Notes under the pieces: model-generated
Databases searched by the model: none
What the model was told of the DNA's origin: nothing
The model's input: only the letters and a program-made list of their open reading frames with translations
Assembly (NCBI GenBank): GCA_000432435.1
Contig: HF993133.1
Location: forward strand, 55,428 to 119,427
Direction: 5' to 3'
DNA length: 64,000 nucleotides
Origin: Eubacterium sp. CAG:180
Lineage (GTDB): Bacteria; Bacillota; Clostridia; Oscillospirales; Acutalibacteraceae
Part shown: one piece after another, positions 2,344 through 19,471 of the stretch
Numbering within the stretch: position 1 is the first letter of the stretch
Layout: each line of letters opens with the position of its first letter
Program-made: the position numbers and the translations under genes

Positions 2344-4307
2344 TATCTTATTTTTGAGCCGTTCGGCATACTCTTGTCAACGAACACAACTTTAACATCG
2401 TCCTCGGAGCAGTCTGCGGCAAGTATCATACCGTTTGATTCCACTCCGCACAGCACCGCAGGCTTTAAGTTTGCGACAACAACCACCTTTTTGCCTACAA
2501 GGTCCTCGGGCGCATACCATTTTGCGATACCGCTCGCCACGGTTCTGTCCTTGCCCGTGCCGTCATCGAGCGTGAGCTTTAACAGCTTTTTCGCTTTCGG
2601 AACCTTTTCGCACGACTTGACCTCGGCCACGCGAAGCTCAACCTTTGCGAAATCGTCAATGCCTATCTCGGCAACGCCCTCAAGCGAATTTATCATTTTC
2701 TTTTCGGCCTTCTGCTGCTCCTTCTGCTTGGCGGTCAGCTCCTCTATGAGCTTTTCACCGTCTATACGGTTAAACAGCGGCGTGGGAGTTCCCACTTTTT
2801 CACCAGACTTTAACGTGCCGAAGGCTTTGAGGCTCTCGTACGAGCGTTCGTTTGTGCCTATCTGCTCAAATATTTTTTCTGCCGTATCGGGCATAAACGG
2901 AGTTAAGAGCACCGCAAGGAAACGTATACCCTCAAGCAAATTGTAAAGCACCGTGCCGAGTCTGCCCTTTTTGCTCTCGTCCTTTGCGAGTGCCCAGGGC
3001 GTAGTCTCGTCGATATACTTATTAAGGCGGCGTGCAAGAGTGAGAATGTTCTCCGTAGCGTCGCTTATCTTGTATTCGTCAAAGCACCTGTCAACCTCAG
3101 CCACGGTCTTCAAAGCAAGCGATGATATTTCGTCGTCAAGCGGCTCTTTGTCGGCGGGAGCGGCAATTACGCCGTCAAAATATTTATTCTGCATGGCAAC
3201 GGTTCTGTTAACAAGGTTGCCTATGGTGTTGGCAAGGTCGGAATTGTATCTCTCGATAAGTGATTCGTACGTTATGGAGCCGTCCTGCGCGTGTGGCATC
3301 TCGGAGAGAAGATAGTAACGCACCGCGTCAACGCCGAAATCCTTTACAAGGTCGTCGGCATAAATGACGTTTCCGCGGGATTTTGACATTTTATCCTCGC
3401 CGAAAAGCAGCCACGGGTGACCGTATACCTGCTTCGGAAGAGGCTCGCCGAGAGCCATAAGCATAATCGGCCAGTAAATGGTGTGGAATCTCACAATATC
3501 CTTGCCTATGATATGAACATCGGCAGGCCAATACTTTTTATACATATCGCTTGAGCCGTCGGGATCGTAGCCGAGCGCCGTGATATAGTTTGAAAGTGCG
3601 TCTATCCAAACATAGATGACGTGATTCGGGTCAAACGTCACGGGAATGCCCCATTTAAATGACGTTCTCGAAACGCACAAATCCTGAAGTCCGGGTTTAA
3701 TAAAGTTGTTGAGCATCTCTTTTTTGCGAGCTTCGGGATAAATGAAATCGTCGTGGCTCTCGATGTAGTCCTCAAGCTGCTTCTGATATTTTGAAAGGCG
3801 CAGGAAATACGCCTCCTCTTTTGCCTTTTTAACCTCTCTGCCGCAGTCGGGGCACTTGCCGTCTACAAGCTGGCTCTCGGTCCAAAAGCTCTCGCACGGG
3901 GTGCAGTACATTCCCTCGTACTCGCTCTTGTATATATCGCCCTGTTCATAGAGCTTTTTGAAAATCTTTGCAACTATTTTTTCGTGGTACGGGTCGGTGG
4001 TTCTTATGAACTTATCATATGTGGTGTTAAGTACGTCGCAAATGGCGCGTATTTCGCCCGACACCTTATCGACATACTCCTTAGGAGACACACCGGCCTC
4101 TTTTGCATATTCTTCAATCTTCTGCCCGTGCTCGTCCGTTCCCGTAAGGAAAAACACATCGTAGCCCTGAAGTCTTTTGTATCTCGCTATTGCATCGGTC
4201 AAAACTATTTCATAGCTGTTGCCGATATGCGGCTTACGCGAAGTGTACGCAATAGCCGTAGTTATATAGAATTTAGGTTTTTCGCTCAAAGTACAAACCC
4301 CTTTCAA
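2343..4307 (-). CDS. metG: Methionyl-tRNA synthetase with C-terminal tRNA-binding (EMAPII-like) domain
   Basis: 654 aa. HIGNSY (HIGH) and KMSKSRGN (KMSKS) class-I motifs, CPDC zinc knuckle, C-terminal Trbp111-like domain. Confidence 0.95.
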   Translation of the reverse strand: MKGVCTLSEKPKFYITTAIAYTSRKPHIGNSYEIVLTDAIARYKRLQGYDVFFLTGTDEHGQKIEEYAKEAGVSPKEYVDKVSGEIRAICDVLNTTYDKFIRTTDPYHEKIVAKIFKKLYEQGDIYKSEYEGMYCTPCESFWTESQLVDGKCPDCGREVKKAKEEAYFLRLSKYQKQLEDYIESHDDFIYPEARKKEMLNNFIKPGLQDLCVSRTSFKWGIPVTFDPNHVIYVWIDALSNYITALGYDPDGSSDMYKKYWPADVHIIGKDIVRFHTIYWPIMLMALGEPLPKQVYGHPWLLFGEDKMSKSRGNVIYADDLVKDFGVDAVRYYLLSEMPHAQDGSITYESLIERYNSDLANTIGNLVNRTVAMQNKYFDGVIAAPADKEPLDDEISSLALKTVAEVDRCFDEYKISDATENILTLARRLNKYIDETTPWALAKDESKKGRLGTVLYNLLEGIRFLAVLLTPFMPDTAEKIFEQIGTNERSYESLKAFGTLKSGEKVGTPTPLFNRIDGEKLIEELTAKQKEQQKAEKKMINSLEGVAEIGIDDFAKVELRVAEVKSCEKVPKAKKLLKLTLDDGTGKDRTVASGIAKWYAPEDLVGKKVVVVANLKPAVLCGVESNGMILAADCSEDDVKVVFVDKSMPNGSKIR

Positions 4308-11041: not shown

Positions 11042-11132
11042 TAAATCCACCCATCGCCGCAGCGATTTCATACGCTGAAAGCGTATTTCATATTGCGAAG
11101 CAATATTTCACCCACCCGCAAGGGTGGATTTA
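11042..11132. other. Long-range inverted repeat (aaatccaccc ... gggtggattt) enclosing an internal hairpin, preceded by three (g/a)atgaaat(c/t) direct repeats spaced about 23 bp apart
   Basis: Read directly from the sequence; no convincing ORF here (the 58-aa frame lacks an RBS). Confidence 0.4.
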
Positions 11133-11136
11133 GTTG

Positions 11137-11257: not shown

Positions 11258-12645
11258 TCAGTTATGATCTAAAGCACATTTTATACAAAATCCATTACCG
11301 CCATCATTTTCAATATCAAGTGGAGTTCCACACGCTGGGCAGTAACCTAGCTCCCCAGGCGGTTCTGGTCTATCATTAAAATAGGTTTGCTCTAACTTTC
11401 CTTCACTTATAACTGCGGTTTCATAACTATTATCATCTTCGAAATCATAAAAAACTTCTGCTCCTCGCTCTACTTGCACAATAATCTGTCCTTCAAACAC
11501 ATGGTCTCTTCCATCAGAACGAATAATTTCTCTTGTGTCTTCATCTCTTCCCCAGTATTCATAAGATGTTCCTTCTACAGTTACTTTATAGACAAACTCA
11601 TAGATGGCCGTACTATCATCACGAGCAATTCTTTCTGCTCTAACAAACTCACTCTCAGTAATTTCAAACTCGTCAATTCCTTCGGAACCGATATTTGCTG
11701 ATTCTTCATCAATATACTCAGTAGCGTTATATATTAGTTCTTCTTCAACTGATTCAAAAACACTATTTGCAATCTTTACGCAATAATCATTATCTGTCAT
11801 TCGAAGAGCAATTTCAACTGCATCATTTTTTTCAATATCATAAGCCTCAGAAACATCTGAAAAAAAGTCTTTCGATGTCATAGGAACAATCTGTTGACCG
11901 GTTTTTTCAAATTCCTCGATAAGTTTTGTATGGAATTGTCTGTTTCCATCTATAACCTCCCACCAATCCGCCTTGACATCATCAGTAATAAAAATCAAAT
12001 TGGTTGATTCTTTTTTTGCATACCTTAAAGTTTCCTGCCAAAGTATCAAATCGCTATACATTCGAACGCCATCTTTATTCTTAGCATCTTTGAAGCCAGG
12101 CGGAATTTCGTTTTTATATCTTTTTTGACCTTCTTCACACCAACGATATATATCCTCTTGTGATGGTGCAATCATAACTTGTCCGTTAGTATCTATTGCT
12201 TCAATGAACTTTTCAAGAAAATCATTTCCAGCCCACGAATGTTGAATAAGTCCAAGAGCTGCATGGTCTTCGAAATAATTATCAAGTACAGATTTAACTG
12301 CATCTATTTTTTCTGATAGGTTAATCTTCAAGTCGTCAACATCTTGATACTGTAATCTTTCAAGGCTATGGCACGAATTAATTATCTTCGATTTTGCGGT
12401 TTCTATTTGCTTGGCCGTTTCTTTGCTCGCCTCTTCAATGCGTTTTTCCATTTTGGAAAACTCTCCGCGTTTGTGTTTTTCATACTCCAATCTCACGGTT
12501 GCAGGTAGAATTATATAATTTTTACAGCTTTTAAGCATTCAAGTGCAAACTCAGAGAATTCAGGAGAATACCTATAAATATTTAAAAGTACATTGGTATC
12601 TAAAATCACACGATATCCATTTTCAATCAACTCTTTTATAGTCAT
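11258..12645 (-). pseudogene. PIN-like (PIN_8/DUF4935-type) nuclease-domain protein with C-terminal zinc ribbon, disrupted by a 1-nt frameshift in an A/T homopolymer near 12519-12523
   Basis: A 43-aa frame MTIKELIENGYRVILDTNVLL...ECLKAVKII* has a good RBS (aaggaaag) and a PIN N-terminal motif. It continues in the -1 frame as the 426-aa ORF (NYIILPATVRLEYEKH...IFITDDVKADWW...CPACG..CIKC). One extra A would join the two frames. Confidence 0.6.
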
Positions 12646-12762: not shown

Positions 12763-14430
12763 TTAGTTCAGCATCTGCTCAACTTTCAACCCGCCTACAA
12801 ATACTACCTTTATTTTTTCTTTGGATTCCACCACTACGCATTCGAGAATTTGGCGAATGATTTGATCGTCATAGGTTAGCGGATGATTTTTGAGTCCGTC
12901 AAGTATTGTGTATATTTCATCAAGACGGGATTTTGCGTTTTCTCTTTTCTGCTGTACCTCCGCATACTGAGCAAGCTGCTGTTCCAATCGGCTTTTTTCA
13001 TTCATCAGTTCCGTTGCCTTGGTTTCGTCAAAGCTTTCTACCGTATCGGCGGATATGGCTTTGAGCATTTTATGAAATTCCGCGTCTATTTCTGCTATGC
13101 GAATCTGTATATCAAGGCTTTTATCCTCTGTATCGTTTTGGTCTAGTCCCATACCGATGTGAAGTTTCAGCGTTTTAAGAATATCGGCATTGAGTTTTGC
13201 TGTATCTATAACGGCTGACATAATCGCATTTTGCAGTATGCTTTCTTCAATACTCGGCGAATGGTGGCAGTACTTTTTTCCGTAATCAAGACGGTTGATG
13301 CATCGCCATACGATTTTCTTTTTGCCTTTAGCAGTCCATGTACATCTGCGATACGGTGTTCCGCATTCTCCGCAGACAAGCAGTTCGGTTAAAGCGTATT
13401 TACCTGAATATTTGCCTTGCTCGGTTTTAGTACCAACTTGTTTGACTTTACGCTTGCCAGAACGCCGTGCCATTTCTTCCTGAACTCTGCCGAAAGTAGC
13501 GGAGTCTATAATCGCAGGATGATTGTTTTCTACATAATATTTCGGTCGCTCACCGTTATTGATTTTTACTTTTTTAGTAAGACAGTCCGATATATATGTT
13601 TTGTTAAGCACGGCATCGCCTTTATATTTTTCATTGGTGAGGATAGATTGTATTGTACCTCGAAGCCATGAGCCTTTGTCGGACGGTGTCGGCACACCGT
13701 CCGTATTTAAATCCTCTGCGATTTTTGCAAGGCTGTCGCCTGCGAGAAATCTTTCATATATTCGTTTAACGGTTTCAGCCTGTTCGGGATCAATTTCAGG
13801 TTTGCCGTCTGCACCTTTTCTATAGCCTAAAAACCGTTTGTATTGGAACGGTACATTGCCTTCTTTGGCGCTTTGTGCCTTACCCCATTTAACATTGGCG
13901 CTGATATTTTCCGATTCGCTCTGTGCGATACTGCCGTAGATGGTGATATAAAACTCTGCACCGGGATCGGTACTGTGGATGCCCTGTTCCTCGAAAAATA
14001 CATCTACGCCTAATTCTTTTAGCAATCTTGTGCTTTCAAGGCAGTCGACAGTATTTCGGGCAAAGCGTGATATGGATTTCGTAATAATCATATCAATCTT
14101 GCCACGTTTACACATTTTAATCATGCGTTTAAACTCATCACGTTTCTTAAGACTGGTGCCGGAGATTCCTTTATCAGCGAATATTTCTACCAAAGACCAT
14201 TTTGGCTCACTGTTAATTTTTTCGATGTAGTATTTTGTCTGCACTTCGTAACTATTCAGCTGTTCTTCCTCTTTGGTAGATACACGGCAGTAAGCAGCCA
14301 CCCGAAGCTGTCTGTATGCAGATTTGATTTCATCCTGAATATTAACCTGTGCAGGAATCACATGTACTGATTTCTGTGGTATTACTGCTGTTTGTGTCAT
14401 CGCTCTGCTCCTTTCCGATCTGCTGATCAT
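12763..14430 (-). mobile_element. Large serine recombinase (resolvase catalytic domain, recombinase domain, zinc ribbon, coiled-coil)
   Basis: 555 aa. Catalytic motif YCRVSTKEEEQ; Zn ribbon CGECG..C..C. Start overlaps the upstream recombinase gene by 89 bp. Confidence 0.9.
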
Positions 14431-15259
14431 TTAATAAAATTATGCTTACCGCACCGCCGGTGCTGAATTTAATTGCTTTAACGGTACGGTTGAATAAATC
14501 CATAGAAAATGCTGAAAGCGGACTCGCATTTGCAAAGTCCGCTTTTAATATTTTTGATGTATATTTTTGCGAATCTATATCCTTATATTTTAAAGATACA
14601 CATTCGAGTATCTTTTTCCGCAGGATATTTTTATCAAAGCTGTGACTGTCAAGCACCCTGCTGATTTCATTTTCAAATCTGCGAACATCCAAACTTGGGT
14701 CTTTATCAATATCTGTAATCATTTCAATTGCATCAGAATTGCTGATAACTGTATTTAAACATTGGGTAATACCATATATCAAATCGTTGTCTGATATGCT
14801 GATAATATTTTTACAGTTATCATTTTGACACAGCCACCAATCCTGACATTTTCGATTGCTGTCATGCCGCCTGCACATCTTACTGCAGCATTTTGGACAT
14901 AGTATCGGCACACCGAGATTAAATATATCTGATTTTCTGTCGATGTGCTTCTGCGTATTCTTTTCCGATTTTATCAGCATTAAGGTTTTATGCATATCTT
15001 CGTCTATAATCGGAGGATAGCTACTCGTACCGAGATAACGCTCATCCTCAATGATTCTTTTAATTCTTGATTTATTCCAACCACATACGCCGAGCATATA
15101 TTCAATCTGTTCATTGTTCAGATGTTCTGCAATTTTCAGCAGTGATAATCCGTTGAGGTATTCCGTAAAAATACGTTTGACGGTTTCAGTTTCTTTTTCT
15201 TGGATTGCTATACTGCCATTCTTGTATTGATAGCCGTATGGAATATTACGAATTTTCAC
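14342..15259 (-). mobile_element. Recombinase-domain/zinc-ribbon protein lacking the N-terminal serine catalytic domain (degenerate middle member of a three-recombinase cluster)
   Basis: 305 aa. Begins directly with the recombinase-domain motif (YGYQYKNGSIAIQEKETETVKRIF..), zinc ribbon CPKCCSKMC. No RVS catalytic serine motif. Overlaps both neighbours, indicating translational coupling. Confidence 0.75.
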
Positions 15260-16820
15260 GCCTGCGACACCGTCCTTTCAGTGGAATTTCTTCTGTAAGT
15301 TCAATATCACCGATGAGTTTAAATGTAAGATCTGCGTTGCTGTTCACAGTAATGCCGACTACAATTTTTTCGAACAGCTCTTCATCAAAATTGTTGCTCG
15401 GATCATAAGCTTCGAGGATCTCATTAAGACTGTTCAGCGTATCAAACCACGCATCATTTTCATCATCCGATAACTTTTTCCGTCTTTTTGTTCTGAGCGT
15501 GCTGATTTTATTATTTATCTCAGATGACTGTGCAGAGAATTCCGCAGAATTTATCACTCCGTTGGTATGAAGCCTTGCGATTACAAGATTTTGTGCGGCA
15601 AGGTCGGCAATTTTTTTGTCAATTCTGCGTATTACATCTATATTGTCTGATGTTCTGTTTTGCATTGCTTCAACTTGCCTGATTAAATCACCGAGTAAGG
15701 TTTTTCGATTATCCGTTAACTTTTGAACCAGCATTGTAAAGGTTTCATATACGGCAGTTTCTTTCAGCCTGAGTGGTCTGCAGTCCGTCATGCTTGCAGC
15801 TTTATTGCTGCATAACCAATATGCTGTACCTTTTACAATCTGCCGTCTGAAGGTCATTCCGCAGTCGGGACATCGCATAACTTTTGACAGCAAGTATTTG
15901 CCTTTGCTGTTACTGTAAACATTTTTTCTTGAATTTTGCAATGTCTGAACCGCTTGGTATATTTCGCGGCTTACAATCGGCGGATTGCTGTTTTCCACAT
16001 AGTATTTCGGCAGTTCGCCATGATTCATCTTTCTTTTGAACGGTAAAGTTTCAGTTGTATAGCTCTTTTGGAGCAGAGCATCACCCATATACCGTTCGTT
16101 ATTTAAGATATAGTGTACTGTGGACTCATACCATTTGTCTTTACCATATCTTCTGCTCACGCCTTCGTCATTGAGAATATTCGCAATACTTTGCTTTCCG
16201 ACTCCACTGAGATATAAATCGAATATGCGTCGGATGATGGCAGCTTGCGGTTCGTTAATCATCAATTGTCCGTCTTTTAAAATATATCCGTATGCAGGAT
16301 TGCAACAATTGAATTCACCTGATTCCATCCGCTTTTTATAGCTCCAACGCATATTCCCCGATATGGACTCGCTCTCTTGCTGAGCCGCCATACCGGGGAA
16401 TGTAACGATCATTTCCATATTCAGTTTATCAGTATCAATGCCTTGTTCCTCAAAATACACGCTGATACCGAGTTCCTTCAGCAGTCTGATACATACCAAT
16501 AGCTCCTGCGTATTTCTTGCAAATCGGGATACTGATTTTACAACGATACGATCGATTTTGCCTTTTTTGCAATCACGAATTAACCGATTCAGTTCATCGC
16601 GCTTTTCCATTGAAGTGCCTGTCAGACCTTCATCTGCATATATATCCACCAATTTGTATTCGGGATGCTTTTGCTCATAATCCTTGTAGTATCTGATTTG
16701 TGCGGCGAAGGAGTGCAACTGATCCGCAGAATCGCTTGACACACGGCAATAGGCTGCCAAACGAATGATTTTATTTTCTTCCTTACTCTTAGCCGTTATT
16801 TCTGTTACATTCATAAGCAT
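15246..16820 (-). mobile_element. Large serine recombinase
   Basis: 524 aa. YCRVSSDSADQ catalytic motif, recombinase domain, Zn ribbon CPDCG..C. Confidence 0.9.
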
Positions 16821-17073
16821 TTTCCTTTCCGCAGATTCTATCTGCTGTTGTCACCTTATCTTCGGTGCAACACCAACAATACCACAAGAGTTCACATACT
16901 TCCAGCGAAATTGAGCAGATTTAAAAATTTAGACACAATAAATTTTTGTGCTGTAGTATTCCGAACTTATACGCACGATTCTGTTATATTCATCTTCTGT
17001 AATCAGATTCATTTTCAGCAAATGCCTTAACATATTTACACTGTAATAAAATGCCGAATTATTTATATCTTCT

Positions 17074-17442
17074 TTATTTTTCATTTTGTAACCTCTCTAA
17101 ATAGTCAAGACCTAAACTGATTAAGATTGCTTTATCAATCCGTTTCATCTGCCTATCATCCATTTCACCGACAAATCTGCCGAGACGGGATTTGTCGATT
17201 GTTCTTATCTGTTCAAGTAGAACCATGGATTCTTTTTTCATGCAGTCTGATTTAAAAATAACATGTGTCGGAAGGTACGGCTTATCCAGTTCCCCTGTGA
17301 TCGGTGCTACAATTGTAGTTGTGCTATGAAGATTTCCTTTATCGTTCTGCAGGATAACCACAGGGCGGATACCGCCTTGCTCAGAACCCATAACCGGGCA
17401 TAAATTGGCGTAATATATTTCTCCTCGTTTTATTTGTTCCAT
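17074..17442 (-). CDS. mazF: MazF/PemK-family mRNA interferase toxin (type II TA toxin) with no recognisable antitoxin gene upstream
   Basis: 122 aa. GEIYYANL..GSEQGG.RPVVILQND PemK/MazF signature. ggagg RBS present. Upstream neighbour is an ORF-poor GC-rich stretch rather than a MazE/PemI gene. Confidence 0.85.
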   Translation of the reverse strand: MEQIKRGEIYYANLCPVMGSEQGGIRPVVILQNDKGNLHSTTTIVAPITGELDKPYLPTHVIFKSDCMKKESMVLLEQIRTIDKSRLGRFVGEMDDRQMKRIDKAILISLGLDYLERLQNEK

Positions 17443-17919
17443 TTTCCTTGCCTCCGTTAATAAGTAAAAGGCGATCGCTTATCAAAATTGGTAAACGACC
17501 GCCTGTAATTTTGTATCAATCGTTTTGTTATCCGATATTTGAACCACGCCACCCCTCGAATACACGGGAACGCACTTTCCGACCATGCATTTGGCCTCAT
17601 TGGAATTTCACCACTCCGAGGATCTCTCCGAGCCGCTCTCCTTTGTTGCGACGGTCTTATCACGCTCGACTTTAGGACTGAACGGAAGTATCATTATTGC
17701 CTCTGCCTGTCATCGCCTTCGTGCAGATTGCCTGTATCGTCTGAGTCCTGAAGGCACTGAAAATCAATGCGTTCGCTCATGTGGCTCGCCGGTTTTAGCC
17801 GACAGCAGAGGGAATGTAAAAAATGCGCTGTGATATTTACTTTTCAAGGAACAACAGAGGCAAAAGAAATGCCCCTCACTTTCCATGCCGAAAAGTAAGG
17901 GGGTTGATAACCAAAAATT

Positions 17920-18429
17920 TTAAATTTTCATCATTTTTTTAAGTTTTTCAAGAATTTTGACTTTTCTCTTATGTATTGCAACCTGCGAAATTCCGTATTT
18001 TTCTGCAAGCGTGCGTTCGGATAATTCTTCATAAAATATTTCACGAATAAGTTTTTGCTCATCTTCTGCAAGTAGAGGCAAAGCAGATTTTAGCTTGTCC
18101 GTCATTATTTTTCGAATAACTTGTTCGTCAAGAGGTTCGCTCTCATCCGCAAGAATATCCTCACCATTGAAATCATCGGTTGTGAGCATATCATAAGAGA
18201 AATCGTTGTTTTCTGCTGAACGTTCATCTATGTATTTTTGACGGCGTTTGGATTTATAGAAATTTCTATAAGTTTCTTCTGTTACTTCCATAAGCATTCC
18301 GTGCAGAGGGATAAATAACTTGTCCGCATAAGAAATATCGTTTTCTTTAAACGAGCAAAAATCCTCATAACTTAATTCTTTGTAATTACCGTTTTCTAAA
18401 ATAAATACTTTTTTCGGTGTATTTTTCAC
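17920..18429 (-). CDS. Sigma-70 region-4 (HTH) domain protein, ECF/Tn916-Orf7-like regulator typical of Firmicutes mobile elements
   Basis: 169 aa. C-terminal LSERTLAEKYGISQVAIHKRKVKILEKL helix-turn-helix. A 9-bp inverted repeat caatctaaa/tttagattg lies just upstream of the start. Confidence 0.7.
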   Translation of the reverse strand: MKNTPKKVFILENGNYKELSYEDFCSFKENDISYADKLFIPLHGMLMEVTEETYRNFYKSKRRQKYIDERSAENNDFSYDMLTTDDFNGEDILADESEPLDEQVIRKIMTDKLKSALPLLAEDEQKLIREIFYEELSERTLAEKYGISQVAIHKRKVKILEKLKKMMKI

Positions 18430-18667
18430 CGTTATTTCCTCCTATCAATCTAAATTTTTAGGTTTAGATTGGTTTGGAGGACTGCGGCAACCTACGCTAT
18501 AATAATTGATACAGCTATAGGCACAATAAAAAAGGCCAAATTTGCCCCTCGTTATGCAAAGGGTAAATTTGGCTTTATAGTTGGTATTTAAATTTTGAAT
18601 TTTTACATTTTTAATAGTCTATATTTACATAATAATATATTATCTCAATGAATAAAGTTTTTTCTTT

Positions 18668-19471
18668 TTATACTGTATTTTCATTTTTTAATTTTCTGAA
18701 TTTACCGGGAGAAACGCCTACATTTTTCGTAAAAACATAAATAAAATTAGCCTCGCTATTGAAACCTGTTTCATAGGCCACGGCAGTTATGGTTAATTCC
18801 GTACTTCTGAGCAGGTATTTTGCTTTTTTTATCCGCATTGCCATAACATAAGCGTACGGTGAATCGCCCGTATATTTTTGGAAAACCCTATTAAAATGAG
18901 AAACGCTCATTGGCATTTTGTCGGCAAGCTTTCTAACGCTAAGATTCTCATTCAGATTATCGGCAATATAATTTATAATCTTTTGAACACTGTCATTATA
19001 GTTGTTTTCACGGTCGTTTTTACTGTTGCTGAAACAGAATAATTTTTGCAATAATTTTTCTATATCTGTGCTTATACTTAGTTTAGAAAAAGGCTTTGTG
19101 CTATTGCAAATACTGTCATATATATGCAAAAACAGCTTTTTTTCGGAAGCGGTATTCTTGCACTTTGTAATACCTTTGTTTTTTTGAATCAGTTCAAAAT
19201 AATCTACTCCGCCGATTTGCATCCAAATAAGTTCCCCGCGGCTGTTCATGTCCGATTGAAGAGCTGACGGATTGTCACAATACAGCATATCACCTACGTG
19301 TGCGGAAATTTGCATACCGTTTTTTACAAATGTAAACGCACCATCCACAATATACATAATTAAAAAACTGTTGCTATTCGTATGAAACAGCGGTTGATTT
19401 TCTGCACAGCAAAAGCGCCCCGCACCGACAGGATAATACCTGTCGGTGCTTTTTATTGATTCCGTTTTCAT
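18668..19471 (-). CDS. AraC-family transcriptional regulator (cupin sensor plus AraC HTH), probable xylose regulator
   Basis: 267 aa. C-terminal AraC HTH signature (LSVRKLADK...YLLRSTELTITAVAYETGF). Adjacent to xylB-xylA. Confidence 0.85.
   Translation of the reverse strand: MKTESIKSTDRYYPVGAGRFCCAENQPLFHTNSNSFLIMYIVDGAFTFVKNGMQISAHVGDMLYCDNPSALQSDMNSRGELIWMQIGGVDYFELIQKNKGITKCKNTASEKKLFLHIYDSICNSTKPFSKLSISTDIEKLLQKLFCFSNSKNDRENNYNDSVQKIINYIADNLNENLSVRKLADKMPMSVSHFNRVFQKYTGDSPYAYVMAMRIKKAKYLLRSTELTITAVAYETGFNSEANFIYVFTKNVGVSPGKFRKLKNENTV

Follow-up and report, generated by a model that had tools for sequence, protein, structure and literature searches.

In a 64,000-nt stretch of DNA from Eubacterium sp. 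CAG:180 (contig HF993133.1, positions 55,428 to 119,427; the whole stretch is referred to here as the window), a gene for a MazF/PemK endoribonuclease lies downstream of a gap of 477 nucleotides (nt) and has no adjacent protein antitoxin. MazF is a textbook type II toxin that depends on a protein antidote, and a first-pass annotation made from the sequence alone had offered four explanations for the gap, namely a long structured 5' leader, an RNA antitoxin, a decayed antitoxin gene or an unrecognized non-coding RNA. The gap proves to be occupied, on the mazF strand, by a conserved structured RNA of ~370 nt that shows compensatory base-pair changes across related loci, has the pemK RNA of Rfam (RF02913) as its core, and may act as an attenuator leader for mazF and the genes beyond it. 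The genes at the locus, in the direction of transcription, are listed below; ORF stands for open reading frame.

17920-18429, minus strand: sigma-70-family-like gene, 169 aa, with a C-terminal region 4 helix-turn-helix; the conserved neighbour upstream of the RNA.
17443-17919: gap between the sigma-like gene and mazF, 477 nt.
17455-17451, minus strand: mazF ribosome-binding site GGAGG, 8 nt 5' of the ATG (17442-17440).
17074-17442, minus strand: MazF/PemK endoribonuclease gene, 122 aa, without adjacent protein antitoxin.
16929-17084, minus strand: SHOCT_2 small ORF, 51 aa (Pfam SHOCT_2, E=1.9e-6).
15246-16820, minus strand: large serine recombinase, 524 aa (Pfam Resolvase, Recombinase and Zn_ribbon_recom).
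14342-15259 and 12763-14430, minus strand: further recombinase ORFs, on the downstream side of the module.

The MazF assignment is secure, as the protein matches Pfam PemK_toxin (PF02452) with E=3.7e-30 over 108 of the 109 profile positions and is MazF-like according to NCBIfam, and the 477 nt in front of its gene contain no antitoxin gene, just as the first-pass annotation had it. The nearest solved structures in the PDB are those of Staphylococcus aureus MazF, Bacillus anthracis PemK and Bacillus subtilis EndoA (E 1e-32 to 1e-34). Residues R26 and T49 are invariant in protein alignment A1 and, judging from published MazF work (Arg29/Thr52, PMC10893535), are the likely equivalents of the catalytic Arg and Thr. 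The ribosome-binding site, rightly called a good one, is kept in the leader alignments. On the other side of the gap, the sigma-like protein matches Pfam Sigma70_r4 (E=1.2e-7) as well as NCBIfam TIGR02937 (50.1 bits vs a cut-off of 42.9), and this gene is followed, as had been noted, by a terminator-like hairpin (17902-17872). The SHOCT_2 ORF overlaps the mazF stop by 11 nt and directly follows mazF in most related loci, where the usual module order is sigma-like gene, RNA, MazF, SHOCT_2 and serine recombinase. It remains beside the recombinase when a gene is inserted or mazF is absent, and variants with a tyrosine integrase lack it; that is, SHOCT_2 tracks the recombinase and not MazF. Two database proteins that are 97-100 % identical to the window MazF, P0002 (170 aa) and P0005 (145 aa), carry PemK and SHOCT_2 in one chain, and are either genuine fusions or frameshift artefacts at the 11-nt overlap.

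Two statements about the gap need adjustment. Its guanine-plus-cytosine (GC) content is higher than that of the surrounding island, 17443-17900 having 0.469, the remainder of the island 0.391 and the whole window 0.434, but the rise that had been called marked is modest, corresponding to the 65th percentile of 458-nt windows, with the structured core reaching up to 0.51. Likewise, the arginine-rich frame of 68 aa (17457-17663, minus strand) exists but is not the sole ORF, with others of 70, 75 and 82 aa on the plus strand. With these two small corrections, to the GC rise and the ORF count, the original observation stands, since both the genes and the gap were confirmed.

The elements of the RNA, from its 5' end to the ribosome-binding site of mazF, are the following.

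17862-17902 (hairpin 17902-17872), minus strand: T1, hairpin CCCCUUACUUUUCGGCAUGGAAAGUGAGGGG and U-rich tail; terminator scan, 14 pairs.
17830-17847, minus strand: conserved element UUGAAAAGUAAAUAUCAC (consensus UUGAMAAnUGAAUAGnAC; alignment A3, columns 188-205).
17569-17829, minus strand: domain closed by P1, 261 nt, from RNAalifold and pair counts.
17829-17818 with 17580-17569, minus strand: P1, long-range helix of 12 bp; 98.3 % paired, 9 of 12 pairs covary.
17811-17805 with 17706-17700, minus strand: P2; 99.1 % paired.
17803-17788, minus strand: P2a hairpin.
Inside the P1 domain, minus strand: P3/P3a.
17739-17720, minus strand: P3b hairpin.
17699-17686, minus strand: invariant junction CAAUAAUGAUACUU.
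17597-17697, minus strand: match to Rfam RF02913 (pemK RNA), comprising the three-hairpin core P4-P6 and the 5' single-stranded AUAAUGAUACUUC.
17685-17633, minus strand: P4.
17632-17614, minus strand: P5; 100 % paired.
17613-17601, minus strand: P6.
17596-17581, minus strand: P7 hairpin; 100 % paired, 4 of 4 pairs covary.
17529-17562, minus strand: P8 hairpin, UAUUCGA...UCGGAUA, with conserved loop GGGGUGGCGUGGUUCAAAUA; RNAfold of homologues.
17512-17526, minus strand: single-stranded box AAAACGAUUGAUACA (also given as AAAACGAUUGAUAC), invariant in the seven-locus alignment.
17461-17503 (hairpin 17503-17470), minus strand: T2, terminator-type hairpin GGCGGUCGUUUAC...GAUAAGCGAUCGCC, then UUUUACUUA; about -20 kcal/mol.

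The evidence for this structure comes from whole-gap alignments of seven loci and then of 49 non-redundant leaders (<93 % mutual identity; 46-92 % identity to the window), in both of which the leader is conserved from T1 through the mazF ATG. RNAalifold with homologous loci, which the first-pass annotation had proposed as a check, gave a consistent structure on the 7 as well as on the 49 sequences. Pairs were counted on the MAFFT alignment, built with no structure imposed on it: 93.6 % of cells across the whole structure are paired in the 49 leaders, vs 85.0 % in shuffles and 39-47 % in slid controls, and the number of pairs changed on both sides, 58, was reached by none of 500 shuffles. The minimum free energy of the gap has a z of -3.4 against shuffles. 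The gap region exceeds chance, both in its low folding energy and in being conserved, with compensatory changes, at over 100 related loci. The proposal of a long structured 5' leader or non-coding RNA is borne out, in that the mazF strand encodes an RNA whose structure is conserved and covaries.

Among the helices, P1, P2, P5, P7 and T2 all covary, and divergent members on viral contigs keep P1 from unrelated sequence, an example being AGUACCGGAAA/UUUCCGGUAUU in locus L090. Stem variants of P8 compensate, as judged by eye (UAUUCGA/UCGGAUA, UGAUCGA/UCGGUUA, UGUUCG/CGGACA, UGUCCA/UGGACA, UGGCCGA/UCGGUCA and UAUCUGA/UCAGAUA), and the hairpin is missing from the L007 subgroup. The box downstream of P8 reads ACGAUUGAUAC in 36 of the 49 non-redundant leaders and ACGAUUGAUAU in five more, and has the sequence UGAUAC in common with the invariant junction at 17699-17686. 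T2 ends 6 nt before GGAGG, between the RNA and the mazF ribosome-binding site. A simple terminator scan did not list it; RNAfold of the 49 homologues places a strong GC-rich hairpin and U-run at this site in nearly all of them, with very different stem sequences, and all nine counted pairs of the T2 helix (helix 20) are changed on both sides. The stem sequences differ freely while the hairpin and U-run stay, as one would expect if T2 were a terminator under selection for shape.

At the 5' end, T1 is kept in most of the 49 leaders (85-88 % of cells paired, with some compensatory changes in helices 1-2), and would serve either the sigma-like gene as its terminator or the leader as its 5' hairpin. 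The element UUGAMAAnUGAAUAGnAC, directly 5' of P1, is kept in most leaders, including those of the distant loci L090 and L093; fitting neither a sigma-A promoter nor any predicted helix, it may function as single-stranded RNA or else as a promoter that a non-standard sigma factor would read. Two other candidate features were rejected. The sole recurrent sigma-A match, TTGAMA-16-CATYTT, would put the transcription start within P1, a covarying helix, and an anti-Shine-Dalgarno pairing of GCCUC, just past T1, with the mazF ribosome-binding site, which appeared in the seven-sequence RNAalifold, is unsupported by the 49-sequence set, where this helix (helix 4) has zero pairs with changes in both strands and one of its partners, the Shine-Dalgarno sequence, is not free to change.

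The RNA is not unrecognized, as had been supposed, because its core is already a named Rfam family, and the locus is accordingly a new member of a known family. The suggested scan with cmscan found RF02913 on the mazF strand at 73.5 bits, well above the gathering score of 34.8 (E=9e-13). The match spans all 61 positions of the model and has a 38-nt insertion in hairpin 1 relative to it. Apart from a chance match to a miRNA model (E 0.62), no other Rfam family was found at E<=1 in a permissive scan of 16500-19000, and a scan of the whole window returned the same RF02913 match. This match ends 155 nt before the mazF ATG on the same strand, and the hairpins of the core (helices 11-15) are 99-100 % paired with compensatory changes in the 49 homologues. 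Rfam types the family as 'Cis-reg', and its discoverers reportedly saw pemK RNA as a candidate cis-regulator of pemK genes. The family was first listed among the '224 candidate structured RNAs' obtained by comparative genomics (PMC5737381), a paper whose main text does not mention pemK; later mentions are database updates and benchmarking, and in the literature searched no description of a larger architecture or tested function was found. The locus resembles the published motif in its full-length match, three-hairpin core, 5' AUAAUGAUACUUC and GGUGAAAUUCC hairpin, as well as in its same-strand position upstream of pemK/mazF in Clostridia-type genomes. It differs in extent, since the model has 61 positions (101 nt here) vs ~370 nt of conserved, covarying RNA, with the 5' domain P1-P3, P7, P8, the box and T2 all lying beyond the model. 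The extended ~370-nt architecture appears to be undescribed. With the Rfam model covering only about a quarter of the conserved RNA, P1-P8 together with the box and T2 would provide a better search model and targets for mutation.

The genomic distribution of the RNA was assessed in two sets of loci. A MazF-profile scan of one genome per species yielded 80 loci, seven of which (L001-L005, L007 and L021) have pemK RNA according to Rfam, always on the mazF strand and with its end 131-192 nt from the ATG, whereas the remaining 73 lack it. The set grew to 123 motif-bearing loci, mostly from the human gut, when viral and metagenome contigs were scanned with a DNA pattern, and the 109 of these with at least 700 nt of downstream sequence were used to count mazF positions. 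The mazF start lies 220-340 nt past the junction GAUACUU in 91 of the 109, at 341-800 nt in five (sometimes behind an extra ORF of ~131 aa, as in L132 and L180) and beyond a later insertion in two, for a total of 98 loci in which MazF is linked to the RNA; the remaining 11 have none. Upstream, a sigma70_r4-type gene ends 100-300 nt 5' of the RNA in 88 of the 96 loci with enough upstream sequence, and these sigma-like genes belong to several divergent families. RNA-linked MazFs remain linked at 46-100 % protein identity, and the RNA is conserved even between loci where MazF identity is as low as 46-60 %. The region is thus present and conserved in homologous modules, and its absence or lack of conservation there, which the first-pass annotation had named as grounds for abandoning its view, was not seen. 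Exceptions to the usual arrangement include L136 and L212, in which the RNA is followed by SHOCT_2 and a recombinase without MazF, L114 and L128, in which other ORFs lie downstream of the RNA instead of mazF, and L099, L109, L132 and L180, in which the extra ~131-aa ORF lies ahead of mazF. A leader query against a plasmid collection gave no match. The tips of the MazF tree separate cleanly, and its deep branches are too short to settle whether the RNA-linked toxins form one clade.

The ~131-aa ORF (…GYAYIYP…TPENIANF…TDMLDRLILDT.GGF…CPDQ.LC…) lies between pemK RNA and mazF, overlaps the mazF start, and is found within the extracted stretches at 365-760 (L099), 732-1127 (L109), 709-1089 (L132), 705-1103 (L180) and 709-1242 (L164). 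It is conserved, has no Pfam family, and may encode a partner of these MazFs; in L164 it is present without mazF. Additionally, a protein with an ImmA/IrrE-like metallopeptidase motif (HEISH/HEAGH) is encoded upstream of the sigma-like gene in L111, L116, L138, L208 and L214, along with a zinc-ribbon protein of ~104 aa, both genes lying 1-2 kb upstream of the RNA and both being absent from the window. Their presence in related elements suggests a control region of the repressor/anti-repressor type.

The search for a protein antitoxin was negative at each level. Pfam gave no match, to an antitoxin or otherwise, for the 68-aa frame, an antitoxin hit of which had been the other named ground for abandoning the first-pass view, or for the 75- and 82-aa frames on the plus strand. 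None of the ORFs in the gap is kept over the 49 homologues, be it in frame, start codon or length, and the variability by codon position, 0.62/0.62/0.78, is not a coding pattern. A MazE-type profile was built from ORFs abutting related MazFs (L035, L039, L069 and L076; the two tested, those of L035 and L069, match Pfam RHH_1), and found no homologue when run against all six-frame ORFs of the 64 kb (best E 0.6). Among the 80 genome-derived loci, the seven bearing the RNA never have an abutting protein ORF at mazF. The lack of an antitoxin neighbour says little by itself, however, because the sample includes 58 chromosomal MazFs of Clostridia that lack both MazE and the RNA. L008, L030, L047, L062, L080 and ~50 other genome loci represent a large chromosomal clade from metagenome-assembled genomes of Oscillospiraceae and Ruminococcus, in which mazF, at ~2992-3345 in each stretch, lies 100-190 nt after an alanine racemase gene, has no MazE-like ORF or pemK RNA, and is followed by a gene for a ~200-aa membrane-anchored protein. 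Based on this alanine-racemase-linked clade, MazF without an antitoxin seems common in Clostridia.

Taking these data together, we assign a probability of roughly 0.5 to the reading in which the RNA of the gap is a cis-acting attenuator leader of the mazF/recombinase operon, possibly responsive to MazF. In its favour are the match to a family that Rfam types as 'Cis-reg', the covarying structure, the constant strand and distance relative to mazF, the shape-conserved T2 next to the ribosome-binding site, and the retention of the domain ahead of genes other than mazF. In this view mazF, SHOCT_2 and the serine-recombinase genes have the RNA as their common leader. Most transcripts would, by default, end at T2 and release a stable structured RNA, and expression of the recombinases and of the toxin, which has no antitoxin, would stay low. 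Read-through would then depend on a factor that the folded domain, or else the invariant single-stranded elements, can recognize, and the most economical candidate would be MazF, a nuclease that binds single-stranded RNA. With MazF as the factor, the arrangement would provide feedback control, and surplus terminated RNA would also soak up MazF. MazF is put forward because four conserved single-stranded UAC-containing sites, located at about 17818, 17690, 17515 and 17466 in the window and present in 45, 49, 36 and 45 of the 49 leaders, match the U^ACAU-type specificity of its closest characterized relatives, and the window MazF itself probably has a UAC-type cleavage preference. Among known systems, terminator-based leaders such as riboswitches, T-boxes and protein-binding attenuators share with this locus a folded 5' domain followed by a predicted terminator and an ORF, whereas neither an antiterminator alternative nor a ligand has been identified here.

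A number of points weigh against an attenuator leader. UAC is not enriched, occurring 6.6 times per leader vs 6.6 expected, so that the idea of MazF sites draws on position alone. No alternative antiterminator structure was found, although no systematic search of all alternatives was made; one candidate, in which the box AAACGA would pair with the T2 5' arm UCGUUU, looks attractive in the window but was rejected for lack of support from covariation, the box being invariant while the T2 arm changes (for example in L111, L133, L135, L147, L223 and L224). A convincing sigma-A promoter between T1 and P1 was not found, the domain of ~260 nt is large for a protein-binding attenuator, and no experimental study of the pemK RNA family was found in the literature. 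Finally, the association counts are redundant, with near-duplicates among the loci, and they are biased, because the locus set was gathered with a DNA pattern from this subfamily.

The foremost alternative, which we regard as unlikely, is an RNA antitoxin, i.e., a terminated leader that binds and neutralizes MazF directly, with a non-repetitive structured RNA replacing MazE. The leader contains no protein antitoxin and the 64-kb window no MazE-type homologue, the RNA never coincides with a protein ORF abutting mazF in the genome-derived set, and the RNA-MazF linkage holds across the full range of protein identity, all of which would suit an RNA antidote; the invariant single-stranded UGAUAC elements could, in addition, mimic substrate. 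A tandem array of short direct repeats is the defining feature of type III antitoxins, and Tandem Repeats Finder (minimum score 30) detected no tandem repeats in 17300-18000. The locus nonetheless resembles the type III systems (ToxIN, CptIN, TenpIN and AbiQ) in its order of RNA, Rho-independent terminator (the predicted T2 here) and endoribonuclease gene, in its lack of a protein antitoxin, and in a toxin fold related to MazF/Kid (PMC5086642). In type III loci this terminator is believed to maintain an excess of antitoxin (PMC5086642). The differences are that the toxin here is a bona fide MazF/PemK of PF02452, rather than a member of the ToxN/AbiQ, CptN or TenpN families, with which the literature relates it at the level of the fold only, and that the RNA is a single large folded domain and not an array of short repeats. 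Against an RNA antidote stand also the 11 of 109 loci in which the RNA domain survives without MazF, the loci with an extra ORF directly before mazF, and the 58 Clostridia MazFs with neither MazE nor RNA, which make a missing neighbour weak evidence. Since the RNA is kept where the downstream gene is not mazF, a leader for any downstream gene fits better than a dedicated antitoxin. We are similarly doubtful that the terminated pemK leader is a large, non-repetitive folded MazF-binding RNA that neutralizes or gates MazF in the place of MazE; if true, such a leader would be a new toxin-antitoxin arrangement, a type II/III hybrid carried on integrative elements of gut Clostridia.

Somewhat less probable still is an autonomous regulatory RNA of the mobile element, which would work in trans, or else as a scaffold on which element proteins such as the sigma-like factor or the recombinases assemble, and would control excision or transfer, with MazF merely its commonest downstream passenger. 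The linkage to the sigma-like gene (88/96) is at least as tight as that to MazF (98/109), and the RNA persists without MazF and sits where integrative elements have their regulatory and recombination genes, relatives having ImmA-like and Zn-ribbon genes on the upstream side; T2, moreover, would yield a discrete RNA. Against a trans-acting role, there is no variable, unpaired, guide-like segment, the variable parts being paired stems, no target complementarity was identified, and an RNA that always occupies the same place and strand just 5' of a ribosome-binding site is more typically a leader.

It is improbable that a neighbouring protein, either the translationally coupled SHOCT_2 peptide or the sigma-like protein, is the real antitoxin and that the RNA has nothing to do with toxin control. 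The 11-nt overlap of SHOCT_2 with the mazF stop, the PemK-SHOCT_2 fusion proteins in the databases and the presence of the sigma-like gene upstream in 92 % of loci are the grounds for considering it. There is also a precedent for a transcription factor as surrogate antitoxin, given that the solitary MazF-mx of Myxococcus xanthus lacks an adjacent MazE and is reported to be neutralized by MrpC (PMC4803016). The present locus is like that of MazF-mx in having a mazF gene without adjacent mazE that is built into another regulatory programme; it is unlike it in that MazF-mx has a distant protein partner and no conserved RNA, whereas here a structured RNA is the constant neighbour. However, SHOCT_2 follows the recombinase, is split from mazF by another gene in several loci, is absent from tyrosine-integrase variants that keep both RNA and MazF, and is present without MazF in L136 and L212, and the fusions are possibly frameshift artefacts. 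The sigma-like gene, for its part, is separated from mazF by a terminator hairpin and ~450 nt, and its counterparts elsewhere come from several divergent families. In comparison with the type II systems MazEF/EndoA-EndoAI of Bacillus, Staphylococcus and Clostridioides, the toxin is alike (E 1e-32 to 1e-34, with the catalytic Arg/Thr positions), but no co-oriented mazE, RHH or AbrB gene is adjacent, as it would be in MazEF/PemIK, or present elsewhere in the window, and the gene belongs to a mobile-element recombination module rather than lying beside alr. The last explanation, a decayed antitoxin gene or functionless sequence, has in its favour only the mechanical ORFs of 68-82 aa in the gap and can be discarded, as ORF starts, ends, lengths and frames are inconsistent over the 49 homologues, variability follows a non-coding pattern without coding periodicity, stems keep pairing through strong compensatory changes throughout, the covariance model matches, and the region is conserved even across loci with only 46-60 % MazF identity.

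In the integrative elements of human-gut Clostridia there is, then, a MazF lineage that always has a large conserved RNA in the place of an antidote gene. Whether the RNA is a transcription throttle, a nuclease sponge or both, its role would show how the cell tolerates an RNase without antidote, and might also show how the elements time their excision, the same terminator being located ahead of the recombinase genes.

As for the island itself, it is only ~7.5 kb long, lies between an AraC-type regulator (18668-19471) and radical-SAM/housekeeping genes, has no conjugation genes, and may be a remnant or a small integrative element. Three serine-recombinase ORFs occur in a row (12763-16820, minus strand), of 524, 305 and 555 aa, and the 305-aa ORF, having the Recombinase domain only, is probably truncated. 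After them comes a gene for a 426-aa PIN_8-domain protein (11258-12538), and ~120 nt downstream of this, at the far end of the island, is a full-length Gut-1 RNA (11060-11136, minus strand; Rfam RF01706, 92.3 bits vs a gathering score of 50).

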